Shown here: in pieces, positions 1,971 to 19,362 of the stretch
Position numbering within the stretch: the first letter of the stretch is position 1
Layout: every line of letters starts with the position of its first letter
DNA from: Bauldia litoralis
GTDB taxonomy: Bacteria > Pseudomonadota > Alphaproteobacteria > Rhizobiales > Kaistiaceae
Reading direction: 5' to 3'
DNA length: 32,000 nucleotides
Assembly: GCF_900104485.1 (NCBI RefSeq)
Contig: NZ_FMXQ01000004.1
Span: 355,898 to 387,897, forward strand
The notes under the pieces: generated by a model
What the model was told of the DNA's origin: nothing
The model's database searches: none
What the model saw: only the letters and a program-made list of their open reading frames with translations
Position numbers and translations under genes: made by a program

Positions 1971-2063
1971 ATGGCAGCGTCGCGATCAATCCTGACGCGG
2001 TCGCGCCTTTGCCGCGAGGCCGCAAGCCGGCAGCACCGACTTTCGTATCCAGGAGAAAGCCCC

Positions 2064-2588
2064 GTGACCGCAACCGAACGGAAATTCGCGCCGGCCGACC
2101 TCGCCGTCGAGGCCGACGGTACCTTTTCCGGCTATGCCAGCCTGTTCGGCAAGGCCGACCTCGGGCGCGACGTCGTGCTGCCCGGCGCCTTCCGCGCTTC
2201 GCTGGCGCGGCGCGGGCCGGCCGGCGTCAGGATGCTGTTCCAGCACGATCCCAACACGCCGATAGGCGTCTGGAAGACGATCGCCGAGGACGGCCGCGGC
2301 CTGCATGTCGCAGGGCAGCTCGCCGCCGGGGTGGCGAAGGCGCGGGAGGTGCTCGCCCTGATGCGGGCCGGGGCGCTGGACGGGTTGTCGATCGGCTACC
2401 GGACGGTGCGCGGCCGCACCGACGCCAAGACCGGCATCCGCAGCCTGATCGAGGTCGACCTGTGGGAGATCTCGGTGGTGACCTTCCCGATGCTGCCCGA
2501 GGCGCGGGTCGAGGCGGTGAAGAGCGACGACCGCGCCGCGCTGCTCGACGCGATACGCCGGGCAACGGTGGCGATGCGGGCGGGGTAG
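2064..2588 (+). CDS. HK97-family prohead (maturation) protease, RcGTA g4-like
   Basis: GTG 2064 follows AGGAGA (2051-2056). The 174-aa product has FSGYASLFG..D..RDVV.PGAF and MLFQHD..PIGVW motifs of HK97 prohead proteases. The upstream part of track ORF 1749.. only translates repeat elements. Confidence 0.9.
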   Translation: MTATERKFAPADLAVEADGTFSGYASLFGKADLGRDVVLPGAFRASLARRGPAGVRMLFQHDPNTPIGVWKTIAEDGRGLHVAGQLAAGVAKAREVLALMRAGALDGLSIGYRTVRGRTDAKTGIRSLIEVDLWEISVVTFPMLPEARVEAVKSDDRAALLDAIRRATVAMRAG

Positions 2589-2595
2589 GGGCGGC

Positions 2596-3273
2596 ATGAC
2601 AGAGGCGAGGACCGCCGAACGGATCGCGCTGATCGCCGCGATCCGCGCGGCGACGGCCGCGATGCTGCCCGACACAGCGGCGACACGGTTCCACAAGGCG
2701 ATGGACCGGCTCGGCCGCCTGCTGGCCGAGCGCGACCTCGAGCGGCGGTACAATCCGGACTGGGCGTCGCAACCGCGTGTCCCGAGCGGCAATCCCGGCG
2801 GTGGTCGATGGACGGATGGTGGTCCGTCGATCATCGGAGAGGAACTTAACCCGTCAGCGTTCGAGGAGCAGGTTTCGGACGAACCGATTGGCGAAGAGCC
2901 TCCAGGCGTTCCGACCGTGCGGCCGGAGAAGGCACGTCGACGCAACAGATACGTGAAAGAGATCGCCCGGTGGCTCCTGCGGGGCACGCGGGTCGGTGTT
3001 CGTCTTTCGCCAATCGGTCGGGCCTTGGACATATACGAGGCGGGGCTCTGGATTCACGACCATTGGTCCTTCATCGAGGCATACCAAGACGAGCCAAAGT
3101 CTCTGGGAGAACTACGTGCGGCTGCCTCTCAGCGGAGAAAGGGATACGATATCCATCATATTGTCGAACGAGCGTCGGCCCTTGAGGATGATTTCCCTTT
3201 GTCGCGAGTCGATGGCGCGGAGAACCTAGTGAGTATTCCGACTTTGAAGCATTGGGAACTCAATCGTTGGTAA
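2596..3273 (+). CDS. Modular protein with C-terminal HH...N...H (HNH/EndoVII AHH/GHH-like) domain; putative nuclease toxin, truncated by an in-frame TAA (frame continues to 3396)
   Basis: ATG 2596 is 8 nt after the protease stop. The N-terminal ~75 aa are host-like in GC, followed by a Gly/Pro junction RVPSGNPGGGRWTDGG and then a low-GC C-terminal part. Signature residues are DIHHIV (HH codons 3154-3159), AENLVSIP (Asn 3223-3225) and KHW (His 3250-3252). TAA at 3271-3273 is followed by 40 more open codons ending at TGA 3394-3396. Confidence 0.55.
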   Translation: MTEARTAERIALIAAIRAATAAMLPDTAATRFHKAMDRLGRLLAERDLERRYNPDWASQPRVPSGNPGGGRWTDGGPSIIGEELNPSAFEEQVSDEPIGEEPPGVPTVRPEKARRRNRYVKEIARWLLRGTRVGVRLSPIGRALDIYEAGLWIHDHWSFIEAYQDEPKSLGELRAAASQRRKGYDIHHIVERASALEDDFPLSRVDGAENLVSIPTLKHWELNRW

Positions 3274-3392
3274 GAAATGAAAAACCCAAACTTCGGCTGG
3301 CTGACGCCAAGGCAATATGCCCGGGGGAAGGATTGGCCCACGCGCCTTAGACTAGGACTGGATGGGCTGAGAGACATAGGAGTCCTTGAGCG

Positions 3393-3764
3393 ATGAGTGG
3401 GGCTAGTCTCGACAGGAGATCGATCGAGGAACTCGTCGACCGCTACGCCGCGACGGGTGTGGCGCAAGACGAGGCCGAACTCAATGACGACATCGGCAAA
3501 TACAACCGCCTCGTCGACGACATCATCGCCGTGGAAGCGGAGCTGAAATCGCGAGCTGGCGATCAGCGCACGGCACTAATGAAGCTGTACGACCACCCCA
3601 ACATGCAGGTCCGCCTAAATGCTGCGCACGCCACGCTTGCGGTCGCACCCGAGGCGGCCCGGGCGCTGCTGATGACCATCCGGGAGTCGCGGTGGATGCC
3701 TCAGGCCATGCAGGCCGGGATGTCCCTGCGGAACCTGGAGAACGGCGTCTATCGGCCGGATTGA
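3393..3764 (+). CDS. DUF2019-like all-helical small protein; candidate immunity/antitoxin partner
   Basis: 123-aa ORF. LYDHPNMQVRLNAAHATLAVAPEAARALL and PQAMQAGMSLRNLENGVYRPD match my memory of DUF2019 proteins (HEAT-like helices). ATG 3393-3395 overlaps TGA 3394-3396 of the extended upstream frame (ATGA junction). GC is lower than the flanks. Confidence 0.7.
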   Translation: MSGASLDRRSIEELVDRYAATGVAQDEAELNDDIGKYNRLVDDIIAVEAELKSRAGDQRTALMKLYDHPNMQVRLNAAHATLAVAPEAARALLMTIRESRWMPQAMQAGMSLRNLENGVYRPD

Positions 3765-3790
3765 GTGATCGAGGGTTTTCGAATTGGGTG

Positions 3791-4155
3791 GGGCGCTCGA
3801 CGGGTTGTCGATCGGCTACCGGACGGTGCGCGGCCGCACCGACGCCAAGACCGGCATCCGCAGCCTGATCGAGGTCGACCTGTGGGAGATCTCGGTGGTG
3901 ACCTTCCCGATGCTGCCCGAGGCGCGGATAGAGGCGGTGAAGAGCGGCGACCGCGCCGCGCTGCTCTCCGCGATCCGGCCGGAGACGGCGGGGATGCGGG
4001 TGGGCTAGGGGCGGCGGCATGACAGAGCGAGGACGCCGAACGGTCCGCGCTTATCGCCGCGATCCGCACGGTGACATGCGCGCATCCCGACCCTGAAGCA
4101 CTGGGAGCTTAACAGCTGGTATGAAAGGCGGAATGGAGACTATGACTGGCTGACG
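3791..4155 (+). pseudogene. Degenerate second cassette: duplicated protease 3' end plus frameshifted 5' end and 3' end of a sister toxin-like gene
   Basis: 3791-4070 aligns to 2371-2650 at an offset of 1420. 2379-2507 equals 3799-3927, with 129 of 129 identical. Identity then falls to about 83% (2521-2580), and indels follow the ATG (4019). 4093-4155 encodes LKHWELNSWYERRNGDYDWLTP, homologous to 3244-3310 of the intact copy. The middle of the gene is deleted. Confidence 0.85.
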
Positions 4156-4185
4156 CCTCTGCTGGCGCGCCCGAAGATCGGATTG

Positions 4186-4698
4186 TCACTTGGCAGGATG
4201 CTCGCGAGGCTGCTGCTCGCGCTCTTGCCGCAGCTCTTCCGTCACTTTGTCCGCCAGTCGCCACAGAACGCGGGCGAGACTTTCTGCAAGATCTATATAC
4301 GGGGCGATTATTTCGGGACTAAGAGGCGTGGCTTTGCCGTCAAAACGGTGCTTCCCTCGGAAGGTGACCACCTCAAAATTTCCATCTTTGTTGGTGCCTA
4401 TCACGCCATGCGCGAGGTCGTTGCGGAATGCCACAAGCCGGCCCGCTTCATTGGTGAGTTTCAAGGTGTCGGCGTATGCTTCCTTCGTCCAGTGCTTCTT
4501 GGCGAACGCATCAAGTAGTTCGAGTTTCGATCTCGCCTGCATGCCGCTGAGGACCACTTGCGCCTGAAAGCCGGATAGTGCCAGAGCGGCGGCGACGGCA
4601 GTATTGAGTGCCAGGTCGAAGCCTGAGAAGTTCAGAAACAGCGCGCCGACTTGATGGGCCATCGCAATCTTGATTTTTGGATCTGGTTCCTTGGGCAT
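4186..4698 (-). CDS. HEPN-motif protein (Rx4H: R-N-D-L-A-H-G), putative RNase toxin / abortive-infection-type effector
   Basis: 170-aa ORF on the minus strand, predicted all-helical. FRNDLAHG is encoded at 4408-4425 (reverse complement CGC AAC GAC CTC GCG CAT) and fits the canonical R-N-x-x-x-H HEPN active-site motif. GC is about 53-58%. No obvious MNT or antitoxin partner is adjacent. Confidence 0.6.
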   Translation of the reverse strand: MPKEPDPKIKIAMAHQVGALFLNFSGFDLALNTAVAAALALSGFQAQVVLSGMQARSKLELLDAFAKKHWTKEAYADTLKLTNEAGRLVAFRNDLAHGVIGTNKDGNFEVVTFRGKHRFDGKATPLSPEIIAPYIDLAESLARVLWRLADKVTEELRQEREQQPREHPAK

Positions 4699-4872
4699 GA
4701 CAAAGAAGCCTCAAAAAGATGACCTAGCCGAAGGGCGACGCATTGCCGAGCGCATGCATCAAGATGCCGCCCGACCCGCACCCCGGTAAGAACTCGTTAA
4801 CCAAAGGCAAGGTACCGAAGAAAGGCGACGACCGGGTTGAGGCCGGCCGCCGCCCCAAGAAGAAGTAGTTAC

Positions 4873-4983
4873 CTACTTCCTCTTAATGGTCTCGACGACA
4901 TGTGTGTTGGGTTTCCCCGTTGCCGTCTTGACCGTGGTGAAGCGACCGGTGACGGCGCTTCTCCCGATTTTGCTGGTGGCCAT
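4873..4983 (-). CDS. 36-aa basic mini-protein MATSKIGRSAVTGRFTTVKTATGKPNTHVVETIKRK
   Basis: Below the ORF-track length cut-off. ATG (reverse complement of CAT 4981-4983) lies 7 nt after a consensus AAGGAG (reverse complement of CTCCTT 4991-4996). The S-x-x-T/S-G-R-F-V/T pattern resembles a widespread family of tiny bacterial proteins of unknown function. It has the same orientation as the HEPN gene, 174 nt upstream of it. Confidence 0.45.
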   Translation of the reverse strand: MATSKIGRSAVTGRFTTVKTATGKPNTHVVETIKRK

Positions 4984-5197
4984 TGGATTACTCCTTTGTC
5001 ACCCGAGCGGATGGACCGCTCGCCCTGAGACGCCCCGTGCGCCTCCAGCCGTCAAGGGCGCGGGCGAACGCGAATCAGATCGCAGGTTGAGTATACCAAG
5101 TCAGGGCTTCTGGCGGTTGCGCCAGCGCATGAAGTGACGGGCCTTCTGGCGAAGTGTCTTAGGCTCCACCAATCCGCCGACAATTAGGAATAAATTC

Positions 5198-5228
5198 CTT
5201 GACAGCGTGACGCTGGTCTGGCAATCTT
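5198..5228 (+). promoter_or_regulatory. Sigma-70-like promoter candidate (CTTGACA-N17/18-CAATCT) with an AT-rich upstream tract
   Basis: CTTGAC at 5198-5203 matches the alphaproteobacterial -35 consensus. It is preceded by CAATTAGGAATAAATTC. The -10 (CAATCT 5222-5227) is weak. Confidence 0.3.
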
Positions 5229-5233
5229 TGGCT

Positions 5234-5326
5234 ATGGTCAGAGAGGTGCGGGTGCGGGGCCTACGCCTGACGATCGAACCCAAGTGATTCTGGAAATGCG
5301 GTCGGGTTTTGCCCGGCCGTTTTTTT
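5234..5326 (+). ncRNA. Candidate ~90-nt small RNA or leader bounded by the promoter-like site and an intrinsic terminator
   Basis: The predicted start is ~5233-5236 and the end is the T-run at 5326. There is no ORF with an SD inside. GTCAG (5237-5241) can pair with CTGAC (5266-5270). No match to any RNA family I recognise. Confidence 0.25.
5299..5326 (+). terminator. Rho-independent terminator
   Basis: CGGTCGGG (5299-5306), loop TTTTG, CCCGGCCG (5312-5319). This is an 8-bp stem with one G-U pair, followed by T7 (5320-5326). Confidence 0.6.
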
Positions 5327-5396
5327 GGCGGAGCGTGGGAGCGCGCCCTCCGTCGCCGCTTCGCGGCGCCACCCCCGATCAGGTCGAGGGCAGGCT

Positions 5397-5417
5397 CTCC
5401 CCCGCTTCGCAGGGGAG
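5397..5417. repeat. Palindromic element, family 3 (CTCCCC-CGCTTCGCA-GGGGAG)
   Basis: The reverse complement recurs at 11317-11341 (TCCTCCCCTGCGAAGCGGGGGAGGA). Confidence 0.6.
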
Positions 5418-5520
5418 GAGCCAGGAGGCGCCGTCGCGCATGCCAGGCCGGCGCACGGTCGCACCGCGGACCCGGCACCGCGAATACGAAAACATGACAC
5501 CACGAGAAAGGAACCACCGC

Positions 5521-6765
5521 ATGACGCATGCTCCCCAGCCTGCGCCGGAGGCCAAGGCGGCCGATGGCGAGATGACCAGTGCCTTCGAGACCTTCAACCG
5601 GACCTTCGCGGCGTTTCGCGCCGAGAATGACGACCGGCTCGAGCAGATCGAGCGCAAGCTTTCCGCCGACGTGGTGACGGTCGACAAGGTCGATCGCATC
5701 AACCGGGCGCTCGATGAGCAGAAGCGGGCTATGGACCAACTCGTCCTCAAGGGGCGGCGGCCGGCGCTGGAGACCGGCGGATCGCGGGTGGTGACCTCGC
5801 CGGAGCACAAGGCGGCCTTCGAGGCCTATGTGCGCGGCGGCAACGAGGAGGCGCTGCGCGGTTTCGAGCAGAAGGCGCTGGCGGTGGGTTCCGACGGCGG
5901 CTACGTCGTGCCGGAGGAGACCGAGCGCGAGATCGGCCGGCGGCTGGCGAGCGTCTCGCCGATCCGGGCGATCTCCGGCATCCGCCAGGTGTCGTCCAAC
6001 GTCTACAAGAAGCCCTTCGCCATCACCGGTGCGGCGACCGGCTGGGTCGGCGAGACCGCGGCGCGCACCGAGACGGCGGCGCCGACGCTGGCCGAACTCT
6101 CGTTCCCGGCGATGGAACTCTACGCCATGCCCGCGGCGACGGCGACGCTGCTCGACGACAGCGCCGTCGACATCGACGCCTGGATCGCCGACGAGGTCGA
6201 GACCGTCTTCGCCACGCAGGAAGGCACGGCCTTCGTCACCGGCGACGGCACCAACAAGCCGAAAGGGTTTCTCAGCTACACCACGGTGGCGGAAGCCTCC
6301 TGGGCCTGGGACAAGATCGGCTACCTGGTCACCGGCGTCTCCGGCGCCTTCGCCGCCTCCGACCCGTCGGACGAGCTGATCGACCTGGTCTATGCGCTGA
6401 AATCCGGCTACCGGCAGAACGCCCACTGGGTGATGAACCGCTCGACGCAAGGGGCGGTGCGCAAGCTCAAGGACGCCGACGGCAACTACATCTGGCAGCC
6501 CTCGGCGGTGGCCGGCGGCACGCCGACGCTGATGAACTTCCCCGTCGCCGAGTCGGAGGACATGCCGGACATCGGCGCCGACACGTTCGCCATCGCCTTC
6601 GGCGATTTCCGCCGCGGCTACCTGGTCGTCGACCGGGTCGGCGTGCGGGTGCTGCGCGATCCCTATTCCGCCAAGCCCTACGTCCTCTTCTACACGACCA
6701 AGCGGGTCGGCGGCGGCGTCCAGGATTTCGACGCCATCAAGCTCCTGAAATTCGGCACGTCCTGA
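5521..6765 (+). CDS. Major capsid protein, HK97 family (RcGTA g5-like)
   Basis: ATG 5521 follows AAAGGA (5507-5512); an in-frame ATG at 5494 is the alternative. The 414-aa product has an N-terminal coiled delta-domain-like region (FAAFRAENDDRLEQIERKLS) and blocks such as GGYVVPEE, TGWVGE and FVTGDGTNKPKGFL typical of HK97-fold capsids. Confidence 0.92.
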   Translation: MTHAPQPAPEAKAADGEMTSAFETFNRTFAAFRAENDDRLEQIERKLSADVVTVDKVDRINRALDEQKRAMDQLVLKGRRPALETGGSRVVTSPEHKAAFEAYVRGGNEEALRGFEQKALAVGSDGGYVVPEETEREIGRRLASVSPIRAISGIRQVSSNVYKKPFAITGAATGWVGETAARTETAAPTLAELSFPAMELYAMPAATATLLDDSAVDIDAWIADEVETVFATQEGTAFVTGDGTNKPKGFLSYTTVAEASWAWDKIGYLVTGVSGAFAASDPSDELIDLVYALKSGYRQNAHWVMNRSTQGAVRKLKDADGNYIWQPSAVAGGTPTLMNFPVAESEDMPDIGADTFAIAFGDFRRGYLVVDRVGVRVLRDPYSAKPYVLFYTTKRVGGGVQDFDAIKLLKFGTS

Positions 6766-6807
6766 GCCCCCGCGTCCCTCCCCAGGACACGTGCCGAACA
6801 GGGCGGT

Positions 6808-6826
6808 CCCGCTCGTGACGAGCGGG
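6808..6826 (+). terminator. Stem-loop downstream of the capsid gene (possible partial terminator)
   Basis: CCCGCTCG-TGA-CGAGCGGG, an 8-bp GC-rich stem with only a weak U-tract (TCTTT) 15 nt later. Confidence 0.3.
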
Positions 6827-7037
6827 CGGGGCCGCCTGACTCTTTGCCCGGTGGATGCGCGGTGCGTCCGTCGAGGCTCCGCTGCGCGGAGCACCTCCGG
6901 ATGGCGGGGGAGGTGCCTAGGACAGCGGTTGTCATGCTGAGGCGCGCGCTGGAGGCGCGCCTTGAAAACGCGCGGGACCGTGGCCACCGGCAGATCGCCG
7001 GCGGGGACGAGTCTCGCCGAAGACGCTCCCCACACAC

Positions 7038-7145
7038 CGTCATCCTCCGGCTTGACCGGAGGATCGGTCTTTACCCGGCGCTCCGCTCGATCTGCAGGCG
7101 CCGTGCCGGCGAACAGCGATCCTCCGGTCAAGCCGGAGGATGACG
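7038..7145. repeat. RIME/REP-like element, family 2: two 29-bp hairpins in inverted orientation
   Basis: CGTCATCCTCCGGCTTGACCGGAGGATCG (7038-7066) is the exact reverse complement of 7117-7145. Each arm is itself a hairpin. Confidence 0.85.
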
Positions 7146-7259
7146 GTTGAGTGGGTGATGGTGTCGCGTGCGCTGGATGGCGGCGCACAGGCTGGATCGC
7201 GGCAGCGGACCCTCCGGGCGGAACGCGCCCATCAATCGCAAAACGGGAAGGACCTCACC

Positions 7260-7835
7260 ATGACCGCAGCCCTGATCACCGGGCCGGCGCTGGAGCCGGT
7301 ATCGCTGGCCGACGTCAAGGCGCATCTGCGCATCGACGGCGGCGACGAGGATGCGCTGCTGACCGCGGCGATCGTCTCGGCCCGTGTTCATGTCGAAAGC
7401 GCGACGCGGCGGGTGCTGATCGAGCAGGGCTGGCGGATCTATTACGACGCCTGGCCGAGGCGGCGGATCGTCCGGCTGCCGGTGGCGCCGCTGATGTCGC
7501 TCGATGCGGTGACGATCTATGACGCGGCGGGCGACCCGCAGGTGGTCGATGCCGAGGATTACGAGGCCGATGTCGCCGCGTCGCCGGCGCGGCTGGTGCT
7601 GGCGGCCAATGCGCCGACGCCGGTCGGACGCGCGGTCAACGGCATCGAGATCGACGTCACCGCCGGCTATGGCGCGACCTCGGTCGACGTGCCGGCGGCG
7701 CTCCGCCAGGCGGTGCTGATGCTGGTGGCGCATTGGTATGAGCATCGCGGCGCGGTCGGCCACGACCTCGCCGTGCTGGTCGCGCCGCTCGGCTTCGAGG
7801 CGCTGATCGCGCCTTACCGGCTGCTGTCGCTGTGA
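7260..7835 (+). CDS. Head-tail connector/adaptor (gp6-like, RcGTA g6-like)
   Basis: ATG 7260 follows GGAAGGA. The 191-aa product has VSLADVKAHLRIDGGDEDALL at its N-terminus, typical of gp6-like head-tail connectors. Its position is right after the capsid gene. Confidence 0.85.
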   Translation: MTAALITGPALEPVSLADVKAHLRIDGGDEDALLTAAIVSARVHVESATRRVLIEQGWRIYYDAWPRRRIVRLPVAPLMSLDAVTIYDAAGDPQVVDAEDYEADVAASPARLVLAANAPTPVGRAVNGIEIDVTAGYGATSVDVPAALRQAVLMLVAHWYEHRGAVGHDLAVLVAPLGFEALIAPYRLLSL

Positions 7836-8167
7836 GCGCCCGGGACTTCGGCCCGGGGCGGCTGTGCCACCGCGTCGTCATCGAGTCGGCGGCCGGCGCG
7901 CCCGACGGGGCGGGCGGCGAGGCGGTGACCTGGGACACCTATGCCACGGTCTGGGCGCGGATCGCGCCGGTCTCGAGCGGCGAAAGGATCGTCGCGGGGC
8001 ACCTTTCCGGCGTCGTCACCCACACCGTCACCATGCGCTACCGCGACGACATCGCCGGCGGCATGCGCATCCTCTATCGCGGCCGCATCCTGCGGCTGCT
8101 GGCGGTCGGCGACCCGGACGAGACGCGGCGCTTCATCGTCGCCAAGGCCGAGGAGCAGGGACCATGA
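7832..8167 (+). CDS. Head closure / stopper protein (RcGTA g7-like)
   Basis: 111 aa. GTG 7832 overlaps the g6 stop (GTGA). The pattern WARI.P.SSGE...H.VTMRYR..I...MRILYRGR resembles phage head-closure proteins. Confidence 0.8.
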   Translation: MSARDFGPGRLCHRVVIESAAGAPDGAGGEAVTWDTYATVWARIAPVSSGERIVAGHLSGVVTHTVTMRYRDDIAGGMRILYRGRILRLLAVGDPDETRRFIVAKAEEQGP

Positions 8168-8322
8168 CCACGCTTGACCTGACCACCGCCGGCCTGATCC
8201 AGGCGCTGCGCCCGGCGACGGCTGCCGGCAAGCGGATGCGGCCGCCGGAGAAGATCCATCGCGCCGCGGTGCCTCTGCGCGAGACGGCGGCGGACAAGGT
8301 CGACATGCGGAGGGACCGATGA
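8164..8322 (+). CDS. Hypothetical 52-aa protein nested between g7-like and g8-like genes
   Basis: ATG 8164 overlaps the g7 stop (ATGA 8164-8167), and its own TGA 8320-8322 overlaps ATG 8319 of the next gene (ATGA). It exactly fills the gap between them. Confidence 0.4.
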   Translation: MTTLDLTTAGLIQALRPATAAGKRMRPPEKIHRAAVPLRETAADKVDMRRDR

Positions 8323-8723
8323 CCCATCCGGCGCTCGCGCTCCAGAAAGCGGTGTTCGCCGCGCTGGTTGCCGACGGCGACGTCGGCGCGGTGCTCGGCG
8401 ACCGGATCCACGATGCGCCGCCGCGCAACGCGACATTCCCCTATGCGAGCTTCGGCGAGGCGCGGGCGAGCGACTGGAGCACCGGCACCGAGGCCGGGAC
8501 CGAGCATCGCCTGACGCTGCAGGTCTGGTCGCGGGAGCGCGGCAAGGCCGAGTGCTGGCGGGCTCTCGAGGCGATCCGCGCCGCGCTCGACGACGCGGCG
8601 CTGACGCTCGACGGCCACGCGCTCGTCAACCTGCGCTTCGAGGCGGCCGAAACCCGGCGCGAGCGCGACGGCATCACCTGGCGCGGCGTCGCGCGATTTC
8701 GCGCGGTGACGGAGCCGGCGTGA
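8319..8723 (+). CDS. DUF3168-type tail terminator/completion protein (RcGTA g8-like)
   Basis: 134 aa. LQKAVFAAL..D..V.A.LGDRI.D..P....FPY and L.VWSRE resemble DUF3168 GTA proteins. The gene order fits. Confidence 0.8.
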   Translation: MTHPALALQKAVFAALVADGDVGAVLGDRIHDAPPRNATFPYASFGEARASDWSTGTEAGTEHRLTLQVWSRERGKAECWRALEAIRAALDDAALTLDGHALVNLRFEAAETRRERDGITWRGVARFRAVTEPA

Positions 8724-8774
8724 GGGGGGCGCCAAGCAAAGCCTCGCATCCATCGGTTGGGAAAGGACACTGCC

Positions 8775-9188
8775 ATGACAGCCCAGAAGGGGAAGGATCT
8801 GCTTCTCAAGATCGACACGACCGGCTCGGGGAGCTTTGCGACCGTCGCAGGCCTGCGGTCGCGGCAGATCGCCTTCAACGCCGAAAGCGTCGACGTGACC
8901 GACGCCGAGTCGGCCGGCCGCTGGCGCGAACTCTTGGAGGGGGCTGGCGTGAAGCGGGCGAGCCTCGGCGGCTCCGGCATCTTCAAGGACGCGGCGACCG
9001 ACGCGACCGTTCGCCAGGTCTTCTTCGACGGGACGATCCGCGACTGGCAGGTCATCGTGCCGGATTTCGGCACGCTGGAGGGGCCGTTCCAGATCACGGC
9101 GCTCGAATATTCCGGCGCGCATGACGGCGAACTCGCCTACGAGCTGGCGCTGGAATCGGCCGGCGCCATCGCCTTCACGGCGGCCTGA
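8775..9188 (+). CDS. Major tail (tube) protein, TP901-1-like (RcGTA g9-like)
   Basis: ATG 8775 lies 7 nt after GAAAGGA. The 137-aa product begins MTAQKGKDLLLKIDTTGSGSFATVAGLRS..., typical of GTA major tail proteins. Confidence 0.85.
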   Translation: MTAQKGKDLLLKIDTTGSGSFATVAGLRSRQIAFNAESVDVTDAESAGRWRELLEGAGVKRASLGGSGIFKDAATDATVRQVFFDGTIRDWQVIVPDFGTLEGPFQITALEYSGAHDGELAYELALESAGAIAFTAA

Positions 9189-18474: not shown

Positions 18475-18516
18475 TCCTCCGGGCAGATCCACCGATCCAT
18501 GAAGGAAGACCTCGCC

Positions 18517-19362
18517 ATGCGTGTGAGCGACAAGGGGCTGGCGTTCATCGCCGACCATGAAGGCGTCGTGACCCGGGCCTACCGCGACGTGGCCGGCGTC
18601 TGGACCATCGGCGTCGGTCATACGGCGGCGGCCGGGGCGCCGAAGCCACGGGCCGGAATGACGATCACCCGGGCCGAAGCCTTCGCCATCCTAGCGCGCG
18701 ACCTGCCGCGCTACGAGCGTCGGGTCGCCGCAGCACTCGCCGCCATCGGCCAGCGGGCATTCGACGGCGCTGTCTCCTTCGACTTCAACACCGGCGCGGT
18801 GCATCGCGCCTCCTGGGTCAAGGCCTATCGCGCCGGCAACCTGACGGCGGCCCGGCTCGGCCTGATGAAATGGGTCAAGGCCGGCGGCCGGACGGTGCGC
18901 GGGCTGGTCCGGCGGCGGGAGGCCGAGGCGCGGCTGATCTTCGACGGAGACTACGGGCATGCCACGGTCACGGCGGAGCCGCGCGCCGACGTCACGACCT
19001 ACCAGGCGCAACTGGCGACACTCGGTTTCCCGGTCGGCACGCTCGACGGCATTGCCGGTCCGGCGACCAGGGCCGCCGTGCTGGCCTACCAGCGCACACA
19101 TGACGACCTGGTCGACGATGGCATCGCCGGCCCGGCGACACGCGCCAGCCTTGCCCGCGACATTGCCGCCCGCAAGCGCGTCGCCGAAATCGGCGCGGGA
19201 TCACTCGCGGTGGGGGGAACGGCCGGGATCGCGGCGGGCAGCGATCCGCTGCTGGTCGGCGTAGCGGTCGGGCTCGTCGTTCTTCTTCTCGCCAGCGGTT
19301 TCTTCGCCTGGCGCTACCGCGGCGAGCTGCGCCGTTTTCTTCGCACCATCAGAGGAGTGTGA
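18517..19362 (+). CDS. GH24 lysozyme with a peptidoglycan-binding repeat and a C-terminal TM anchor (endolysin)
   Basis: An E-8aa-D-5aa-T catalytic motif lies in ADHEGVVTRAYRDVAGVWTIGVGHT. PG_binding_1-like LDGIAGPATRAAVLAYQ and DDGIAGPATRASL are present. The C-terminal hydrophobic helix is LLVGVAVGLVVLLLASGFFAW. ATG 18517 follows AAGGAAG; ATG 18499 is the alternative start. Confidence 0.85.
   Translation: MRVSDKGLAFIADHEGVVTRAYRDVAGVWTIGVGHTAAAGAPKPRAGMTITRAEAFAILARDLPRYERRVAAALAAIGQRAFDGAVSFDFNTGAVHRASWVKAYRAGNLTAARLGLMKWVKAGGRTVRGLVRRREAEARLIFDGDYGHATVTAEPRADVTTYQAQLATLGFPVGTLDGIAGPATRAAVLAYQRTHDDLVDDGIAGPATRASLARDIAARKRVAEIGAGSLAVGGTAGIAAGSDPLLVGVAVGLVVLLLASGFFAWRYRGELRRFLRTIRGV

Follow-up and report, generated by a model that had tools for sequence, protein, structure and literature searches.

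In a 32,000-nt stretch of Bauldia litoralis DNA (the window, meaning the whole stretch), we find that the 3′ end of a prohead protease gene is present twice, the second copy lying 1420 bp downstream of the first and followed by the debris of a toxin gene. The segment that carries this second copy (3790–4157) is probably an orphan: a displaced and decayed "protease 3′ end + toxin" module in a polymorphic toxin–immunity locus of a gene cluster resembling the Rhodobacter capsulatus gene transfer agent (RcGTA; GTA, gene transfer agent). A sequence-only reading of the window had proposed a displaced sister cassette of "protease end + cassette" type rather than a simple in-place duplication, and this is supported by the architecture of a related locus, by arrays of repeated handles in other genomes, and by the modularity of the N- and C-terminal parts of the toxins. 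We refer to the two copies of the repeat as W1 and W2 (copies 1 and 2), to related loci by L-numbers, and to proteins by P-numbers. The features on which the argument turns are as follows.

2064–2588, forward strand: HK97-family (S78) prohead protease gene (Peptidase_S78, E = 1.2e-34; TIGR01543, E = 7.8e-35; PHROG head maturation protease)
2370–2588, forward strand: protease 3′ end, copy 1, the last ~73 codons of the prohead protease gene
2516–2665, forward strand: internal repeat with an offset of 88 nt (2516–2577 against 2604–2665, 74%)
2596–3396, forward strand: toxin 1, 266 codons, with an N-terminal helix, a QPRVPSGNPGGGRWTDGG linker, and a C-terminal HH...N...H domain
3393–3764, forward strand: DUF2019 gene, presumed cognate immunity gene (PF09450, E = 8.9e-35, 119.3 bits against a cut-off of 23.3)
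3765–3789, forward strand: junction from the immunity stop to the duplicated protease end (…TTCGAATTGGGTGG / GGCGCTCGACGGG), common to L003 by alignment
3790–4008, forward strand: protease 3′ end, copy 2, protease residues ~109–174 plus stop, with a diverged tail at 3928–4008
4019–4075, forward strand: N-terminal remnant of toxin 2, an ATG frameshifted by two 1-nt deletions (tblastn with the toxin N-terminus, query residues 3–29, E = 0.009)
4084–4157, forward strand: internal fragment of toxin 2, IPTLKHWELNSWYERRNGDYDWLTP, equivalent to toxin 1 codons 214–237 (72% to 3235–3308; tblastn E = 3e-9)
4158–5184, reverse strand: window-specific insert of ~1 kb and lower GC (54%–62%), with no homology in L001, L003, or L021
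4186–4698, reverse strand: ORF170, with an RNDLAH (Rx4H) motif and a weak, sub-threshold HEPN_MAE_28990 match (E = 0.056)
4876–4983, reverse strand: 36-aa open reading frame (ORF) within the insert

The repeat search returns a direct repeat of 226 nt (2370–2595 against 3790–4015, 93% identity, spacing 1420), which gapped local alignment lengthens to 2370–2654 against 3790–4075; the ~1420-bp-spaced alignment of 3791–4070 with 2371–2650 given in the sequence-only reading is thus real. Identity along the repeat is very uneven. Pairwise alignment confirms a perfect block of 129 out of 129 positions (2379–2507 against 3799–3927), bounded by a mismatch at 2378 and another at 2508. Beyond it, 14 mismatches accumulate within 2508–2589 (83% identity), and gapped alignment places ten of them in 2521–2580, as had been reported; the two peptide tails quoted for this stretch are the actual translations. 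The step from 0/129 to 14/82 mismatches is nonrandom (P = 8.6e-7, Fisher's exact test), so that the claimed identity gradient stands in part, although some of it is background, the tail being fast-evolving in all relatives.

The tail of copy 2 has the largest number of unique changes, nonconservative ones among them, with R-to-P, A-to-E, and A-to-G replacements in the helix. Such changes resemble the decay of a pseudogene more than a functional allele. Downstream, the ATG at 4019 opens a frame of only 25 codons and is dead. The earlier claim that indels frameshift this start holds: There are two 1-nt deletions opposite 2604 and 2612, and copy 2 also has three extra bases (4010–4012). This 3-nt difference was considered as a further sign of decay in copy 2 and rejected, since the longer form is common to L021 and the shorter to L082. 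What follows had been described as the last ~20 codons of a sister toxin gene (4093–4155); we find instead an internal fragment (4084–4157) that matches codons 214–237 of 266. About 187 codons are deleted between the N-terminal remnant and this fragment, and the last 29 codons are also gone. The lower-GC insert takes the place of the remainder of cassette 2 and its immunity gene, and conservation with L021 and L001 resumes at 5185–5345. Scans against Pfam, NCBIfam, PHROGs, and PADLOC return nothing for the toxin, for the 36-aa ORF, or, beyond the weak HEPN match, for ORF170.

The tandem structure is old. A single collinear high-scoring segment pair joins window positions 2041–4011 to L003 positions 5315–7284 at 87% identity, and it covers the protease, toxin, immunity gene, 25-nt junction, and duplicated protease end. 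Because an independent genome of 87% identity has the same tandem, the structure is no artifact of assembly and is older than the split of the two lineages. Collapsed or misjoined reads could in principle have created such a structure, because a 129-bp perfect block can mislead assemblers; this has no direct support, and with the same order and junction in L003 and unique flanks on either side of copy 2, we regard an artifact as extremely improbable. The sequence-only reading had named evidence of such an artifact as grounds for abandoning its claim, and the comparison with L003 points the other way. Past the TAG of the duplicated protease end, L003 continues into unrelated DNA and an IS630-like transposase.

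The L003 locus, which belongs to the closest genome, has two further features of its own. Positions 1–2100, 5′ of the portal gene, hold an array of toxin C-terminal fragments with four DUF2019 genes, and the region around 7285–8800 lacks the capsid-to-tail part, which is found on L021, another contig of the same metagenome-assembled genome.

Comparison of the four repeat copies in the window and L003 shows a pattern of concerted change. There are five sites in the block and six in the tail at which W1 and W2 agree with each other and differ from the two L003 copies, which likewise agree with each other; sites with the pattern expected of orthology number zero. The L003 copies are 98%–99% alike over the entire repeat. 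Within the block, W1 and W2 match at 121/121 positions, compared with 117/121 (four differences) between W1 and its orthologue in the 97%-identical L082. The perfect block is best read as a recent gene conversion tract reflecting concerted evolution. The duplication predates the split between the window and L003, yet the copies share lineage-specific variants, and so the block is not an original crossover scar. The claim that the block marks a crossover or a conversion tract accordingly survives as conversion (11 concerted sites against no orthology sites) and fails as original crossover, an origin that we rejected because the duplication is common to L003 and the window-specific variants occur in both copies.

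The identity step might also arise with no conversion at all, if the protease-domain part were conserved and the C-terminal tail hypervariable. The tail is indeed more variable between orthologues: W1 differs from L082 at 4/121 block positions and 9/81 tail positions, and orthologue identity overall is 94%–97% in the block and 80%–89% in the tail, even in the 97%-identical L082. But copy 2 is noncoding, where such constraint is not expected, and scaling by the orthologue ratio predicts about six to seven block mismatches where we observe none (Poisson estimate, ~0.001–0.002). The five window-specific block variants are moreover present in both copies, and the L003 copies are homogenized over their full length with no orthology-type sites. 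Differential constraint by itself is thus a decidedly unlikely account of the step.

The remains of toxin 2 favor an allele distinct from toxin 1 as the source of cassette 2. At the DNA level the fragment is 72% identical to toxin 1, 79% to L001, and 78% to L021; at the protein level, 21/25 residues match P0013 and 18/25 match toxin 1, P0013-type toxins being the closest. The main alternative is that [protease end + cassette] was duplicated in place and then decayed independently downstream, with no foreign allele and no replacement. Both toxin pieces do belong to the HH-toxin family, the structure is old enough to be found in L003, and the 28% divergence of the pseudogene fragment could have accrued in place. 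However, the toxin 2 fragment is nearer to the alleles of other genomes (L001, L021, and P0013) than to toxin 1, the repeated handles of sister genomes precede clearly unrelated toxin domains, and the variable part of cassette 1 has a foreign-looking GC content. We consider duplication in place unlikely.

For the displaced module, a plausible history runs as follows. A segment [protease 3′ part – toxin 1 – DUF2019 immunity] would have been integrated on its left side through homologous recombination within the protease gene, and its right end would have been joined at 3789/3790, immediately 5′ of the resident copy of the protease end, with no microhomology visible beyond "GG". The resident protease end and toxin 2 would then have been stranded downstream with neither promoter nor intact frame. 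As the sequence itself records, toxin 2 afterwards acquired frameshifts and a deletion of ~187 codons, and the further 1-kb insertion cost it its 3′ end and its immunity gene. The two protease-end copies would have kept exchanging sequence by gene conversion, and such ongoing conversion would account for a 129-bp perfect block with window-specific variants in both copies, beside a diverged tail.

Several points weigh against this reconstruction. The route of integration, combining one-sided homology with an illegitimate join, is drawn from one junction with trivial microhomology. The case for conversion assumes that copy 2 of the window and copy 2 of L003 are orthologous, and L003 and L021 come from one metagenome-assembled genome of unassessed contig and base accuracy. 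Of toxin 2 only 57 + 74 nt are left, and the case for a distinct allele is a weak one, 72% against 78%–79% over about 55–78 nt. An intact second allele, for which a search of other strains had been suggested, was not found in a scan of GTDB limited to one genome per species, nor in L003, where unrelated DNA follows copy 2, nor in L082, which ends inside the immunity gene.

Both toxins in the window are dead, toxin 2 by its deletions and toxin 1 by an in-frame TAA (3271–3273), beyond which the frame reads on for 41 codons to a TGA at 3394–3396; the DUF2019 gene alone is intact. Dead toxins beside a retained immunity gene are what one would expect to see in the end if only immunity continues to be of use. 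The TGA of toxin 1 overlaps the DUF2019 start (ATGA). In the 97%-identical P0001/L082 the codon equivalent to 3271–3273 is TAT (Tyr), and toxin 1 would be either a recent pseudogene or the victim of a base error in the window. At L082 ~1161, equivalent to window position 2596, the toxin start is ATT instead of ATG, and gene callers use an internal Met; this is either a further sign of decay or a noncanonical start.

The DUF2019 gene is presumed to encode the cognate immunity protein. It is found always directly 3′ of the HH-toxin gene (in the window, L001, L003, L085, L083, and L090), often in arrays, and its product is related to a hypothetical protein of known structure (PDB 2I9C, E = 1.5e-28). 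Among the papers that we searched, none links GTAs with polymorphic toxins and none treats DUF2019 as an immunity protein.

Toxin 1 has 48 homologues, none with a Pfam domain. The first ~75 residues of the toxin conform to MT..R..LLAAIRAAT.AM...RF..AMDRLG.LL.ER.LERRYNPxWxSQPRVPxGNPxGGRWTDGG, and this N-terminal region recurs in P0045, P0047, and P0048, whose C-termini are unrelated. Conversely, P0012, P0029, P0037, and P0046 combine the C-terminal domain (GYDIHHIVE...ENLVRIPTLKHWE.N.W) with other N-termini. The same N-terminus and linker are joined to HH-toxin, GCHTCG/DHQ-type, RNase A CdiA-CT, colicin-E3, and other C-termini. Such modularity of N- and C-termini is the defining trait of polymorphic toxins (sensu Zhang et al. 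2012), and the family is therefore placed among them. The GC content agrees with exchange of the C-terminal part: It falls to 51%–63% in toxin 1, low in the variable part, while the handle has native GC.

The AlphaFold2 model of P0001 has a predicted local distance difference test score >95 for residues 130–244, the C-terminal domain, and places strands at 162–166 and 189–193 and a helix at 194–205 around the invariant HH, N, and H. On this model the domain probably has an HH..N..H beta-beta-alpha core and is nuclease-like; fold and profile comparisons gave no match that would confirm an HNH assignment, and a PDB-sequence profile search with the toxin alignment returned zero matches.

The N-terminal helix of the toxin is copied from the protease tail. 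The C-terminal helix of the protease (DRAALLDAIRRATVAM) is reused as the N-terminal helix of the toxin (ERIALIAAIRAATAAM), the two being encoded by the internal repeat at 2516–2665. The similarity of the peptides exceeds that of composition-preserving shuffles in four genomes (P ≤ 0.0006), and the pairing of protease tail and toxin helix is found also in L001. P0047 and P0006, toxins not adjacent to a protease, keep the protease-tail-like helix. Translation of protease and toxin as one frame was considered and rejected, because the toxin ATG lies in the +1 frame, 7 nt past the protease TAG.

When the first 77 toxin residues were taken as query, exhaustive searching with phmmer matched 153 proteins. 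The linker motif (K/R)(Y/F)xPxQPRxPxGxxxGGxW recurs three to eight times, every 150–300 residues, in many proteins of 1000–2250 aa (P0175–P0261), which carry ADP-ribosyltransferase (ART-PolyVal), Zeta_toxin, Acb1, NUDIX, GNAT, colicin DNase, Phage_Mu_F, and Portal_Mu domains. It acts as a domain separator of polyvalent-type proteins. A profile of the 44-aa linker searched against a set of 5.8 billion proteins retrieved only fragments of 35–77 aa, uninformative as to carriers.

The window is far from alone in its architecture. Scanning one genome per species with the toxin alignment yielded 79 loci, nearly all titled as Hyphomicrobiales-type or generic alphaproteobacterial; window proteins mapped onto them detect GTA head genes in 48 of the 79. 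Linker-bearing ORFs follow the protease in 24 loci, the portal in 14, and the capsid in 18. Duplicates of the 3′ end of the upstream gene are present in 11 loci (portal, seven; protease, three; capsid, one). In-frame fusions of the portal C-terminus to a toxin occur in L045, L051, L063, L068, L075, L076, L079, L080, and L081, and in-frame protease–toxin fusions in L061, L066, and L077. Four loci (L066, L075, L080, and L081) have two to four tandem handles, each a portal or protease 3′ end plus linker; the handles are 79%–96% identical and each precedes a different C-terminal domain. Two of the domains found after linkers are known toxins, a CdiA-CT RNase A and the colicin-E3 "Cytotoxic" domain. 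In IMG/VR there are 32 related loci. Downstream orphan cassettes with a conserved handle are thus seen in the window (3790–4157), in the arrays, and in the 11 loci with duplicates.

To judge from these comparisons, the window holds a decayed instance of an architecture that recurs and behaves like the orphan arrays of contact-dependent growth inhibition (CDI) and Rhs loci, and the GTA head genes of dozens of related genomes are a place where bacterial toxins are regularly swapped. Separately, we observe that L076 (4939–6816) and L045 (4891–6468) each encode a full-length portal protein that continues in frame into the linker and a toxin domain, with a small gene, a candidate for immunity, coming next, and that L045 also contains a displaced portal 3′ end without a toxin (6763–7083).

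We propose that the most likely role of helix and linker is to direct the toxin into the assembling GTA head; loading into the prohead is suggested because the linker is the separator of polyvalent proteins and because portal and protease fusions exist. The toxin would consist of a helix copied from the protease tail, the QPRVPxGxxxGGxWTDGG linker, and an exchangeable C-terminal domain; it would leave the producer with the particle, and DUF2019 would protect kin. In relatives, head loading would come about through toxins fused directly to the portal protein or the protease. The linker might be cleaved, and recipients might receive the toxin. Taken together, the RcGTA-like particles of Hyphomicrobiales might be armed with head-loaded polymorphic toxins that are delivered to recipients, with DUF2019-type immunity marking kin, a proposal that we advance only tentatively. 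It is a similarly speculative suggestion that loading proceeds by either of two routes, portal or protease fusion or a protease-tail-like helix, each followed by the QPRVPxGxxxGGxW separator.

The toxins may instead not be packed into heads at all: They could ride on the GTA operon and be released by lysis from a small producer subpopulation, as colicins are, or serve as addiction or defense modules. The window-type toxin is a separate ORF and not a fusion, the same toxin + DUF2019 pair occurs outside GTA clusters (L083, L084, and L087), colicin-type domains occur in these slots, and GTA release is itself by lysis. On the other hand, in-frame fusions to portal and prohead protease put the toxin physically in the prohead, the linker serves as domain separator in the MuF- and portal-associated polyvalent proteins of phages, and the toxin N-terminus copies the protease tail. 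Life outside the head is a possibility to be taken seriously, if not the one we would expect. Three considerations count against an armed particle: The RcGTA particle hands DNA to the recipient periplasm, and a cytoplasmic toxin needs a further entry step; the toxin domain has no match in Pfam, NCBIfam, PHROG, PADLOC, or PDB; and the toxicity, immunity, encapsidation, and delivery ascribed to this toxin family are deduced from sequence.

An orphan is ordinary for a polymorphic toxin locus; the interest here lies in the GTA-head setting and the shared separator motif. The likeness to CDI/Rhs orphan arrays that had been claimed for the window holds for the mode of evolution, with handle arrays and modularity, but not for membership, as there is no CdiA or Rhs carrier. 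As in CDI (cdiBAI) and Rhs orphans, displaced modules lie 3′ of the expressed gene and retain a conserved upstream coding piece as a recombination handle; there, too, alternative C-terminal toxins form arrays, each with its own immunity gene, and orphans are often truncated. In contrast to those systems, the VENN and PxxxxDPxGL boundaries are absent, and the handle is the 3′ end of the GTA protease, portal, or capsid gene together with the QPRVPxGxxxGGxWTDGG linker. The window toxin is a separate ORF with no Pfam or NCBIfam domain, the gene upstream encodes an S78 protease, and neither an Rhs nor a CdiA ORF lies within the slot. A virus-like particle would presumably be the vehicle, in place of a type V or type VI secretion system.

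Closest in concept are the MuF polymorphic toxins, in which a head-morphogenesis module beside the portal is accompanied by immunity genes and capsid loading and delivery are predicted (Zhang et al. 2012, PMC3482391; Jamet et al. 2017, PMC5576092). Both have polymorphic toxins and immunity genes in the head module. Unlike in MuF systems, the toxin is carried by portal, by S78 protease, or by a helix resembling the protease tail; the element that hosts it is a Hyphomicrobiales cluster of RcGTA-like type, where that of MuF is a temperate phage; and handle-bearing orphan arrays are prominent (the word "orphan" is absent from PMC5576092). A MuF domain (PF04233/PF06152-like) has no Pfam match at E ≤ 0.1, and is present only in some distant linker-bearing polyvalent proteins.

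The polyvalent proteins of phages include effector fusions to portal and MuF domains, proposed to be packaged in the head and injected (Iyer et al. 2017, PMC5512222). The (K/R)(Y/F)xPxQPRxPxGxxxGGxW separator is common to both, and the terms "linker," "glycine-rich," and "inter-domain" are absent from that paper. Polyvalent proteins have 2–15 effector domains per polypeptide without dedicated immunity genes. In the present systems each module holds a single toxin domain, is accompanied by immunity, and is polymorphic as a cassette; the toxin of the window has just one domain at its C-terminus.

In capsid-targeting sequences a short terminal peptide loads cargo into the prohead, as in T4 IPIII and through the N-terminal signal of P1 DarB (PMC9024508). 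Similarly, the window toxin starts with a copy of the protease terminal helix, although targeting would here be read purely from sequence mimicry. The HK97 protease is also said to be targeted through its C-terminus, reportedly from work by Duda and colleagues in 2013.

The maintenance of GTAs is a long-standing question, since production kills the cell and GTA genes are not favored among the DNA that the particles carry. Toxin–immunity arrays at the portal, protease, and capsid genes of GTAs in dozens of Hyphomicrobiales genomes suggest a benefit: kin-selective killing or policing of nonimmune recipients. If this is true, GTAs double as kin-discriminating toxin-delivery devices, and the 3′ ends of head genes are recombination handles for a cassette exchange that is itself perhaps GTA-mediated. 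The idea of capsid-delivered polymorphic toxins, so far applied to the MuF proteins of temperate phages, would then also cover domesticated particles. In practical terms, helix + linker is a candidate for a portable tag that loads cargo into heads, and the system offers a natural case in which the 3′ ends of structural genes act as handles for cassette exchange while gene conversion continues.

By its family matches (Phage_portal, Peptidase_S78, Phage_capsid, DUF2460, Phage_BR0599, GTA_TIM, and Rcc01698_C) and collinear gene order, the surrounding region is identified as an RcGTA-like head–tail gene cluster. Its remaining head features are these.

3–1217: portal gene (Phage_portal)
1286–1474: small g3.5-like ORF
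5521–6765, forward strand: HK97-type major capsid gene, the 3′ border of the cassette slot (Phage_capsid, E = 8.5e-92; TIGR01554, E = 3.8e-124)

Located 3′ of the capsid gene are genes for a connector/adaptor, head completion, DUF2460 and BR0599 proteins, and a 1331-aa GTA_TIM/Rcc01698_C protein. GC content is 70%–75% in the head–tail genes, compared with 51%–66% across 2800–3800 and 4100–5250. Soon after the GTA tail genes, 18499–19362 encodes a protein with phage-lysozyme and peptidoglycan-binding domains, which may be a GTA-associated muralytic function.

Two kinds of noncoding feature lie among the head genes. At 5186–5325, 5′ of the capsid gene, a palindrome (AGGAATAAATTCCT) is followed by TTGACA and then by a strong hairpin and T-run at 5298–5320; the element is near-invariant over ~55 nt in L021 and L001, and may be a small RNA or else a regulated promoter equipped with an attenuator. 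No Rfam family matches anywhere in the window, this element included. GC-rich inverted repeats resembling repetitive extragenic palindromes (CCCTCCCCG...CGGGGAGGG type) occupy the gaps before the protease (1786–1994), before the capsid (5344–5420), and after the capsid (7036–7147), one pair having 36-nt arms that are 94% complementary.

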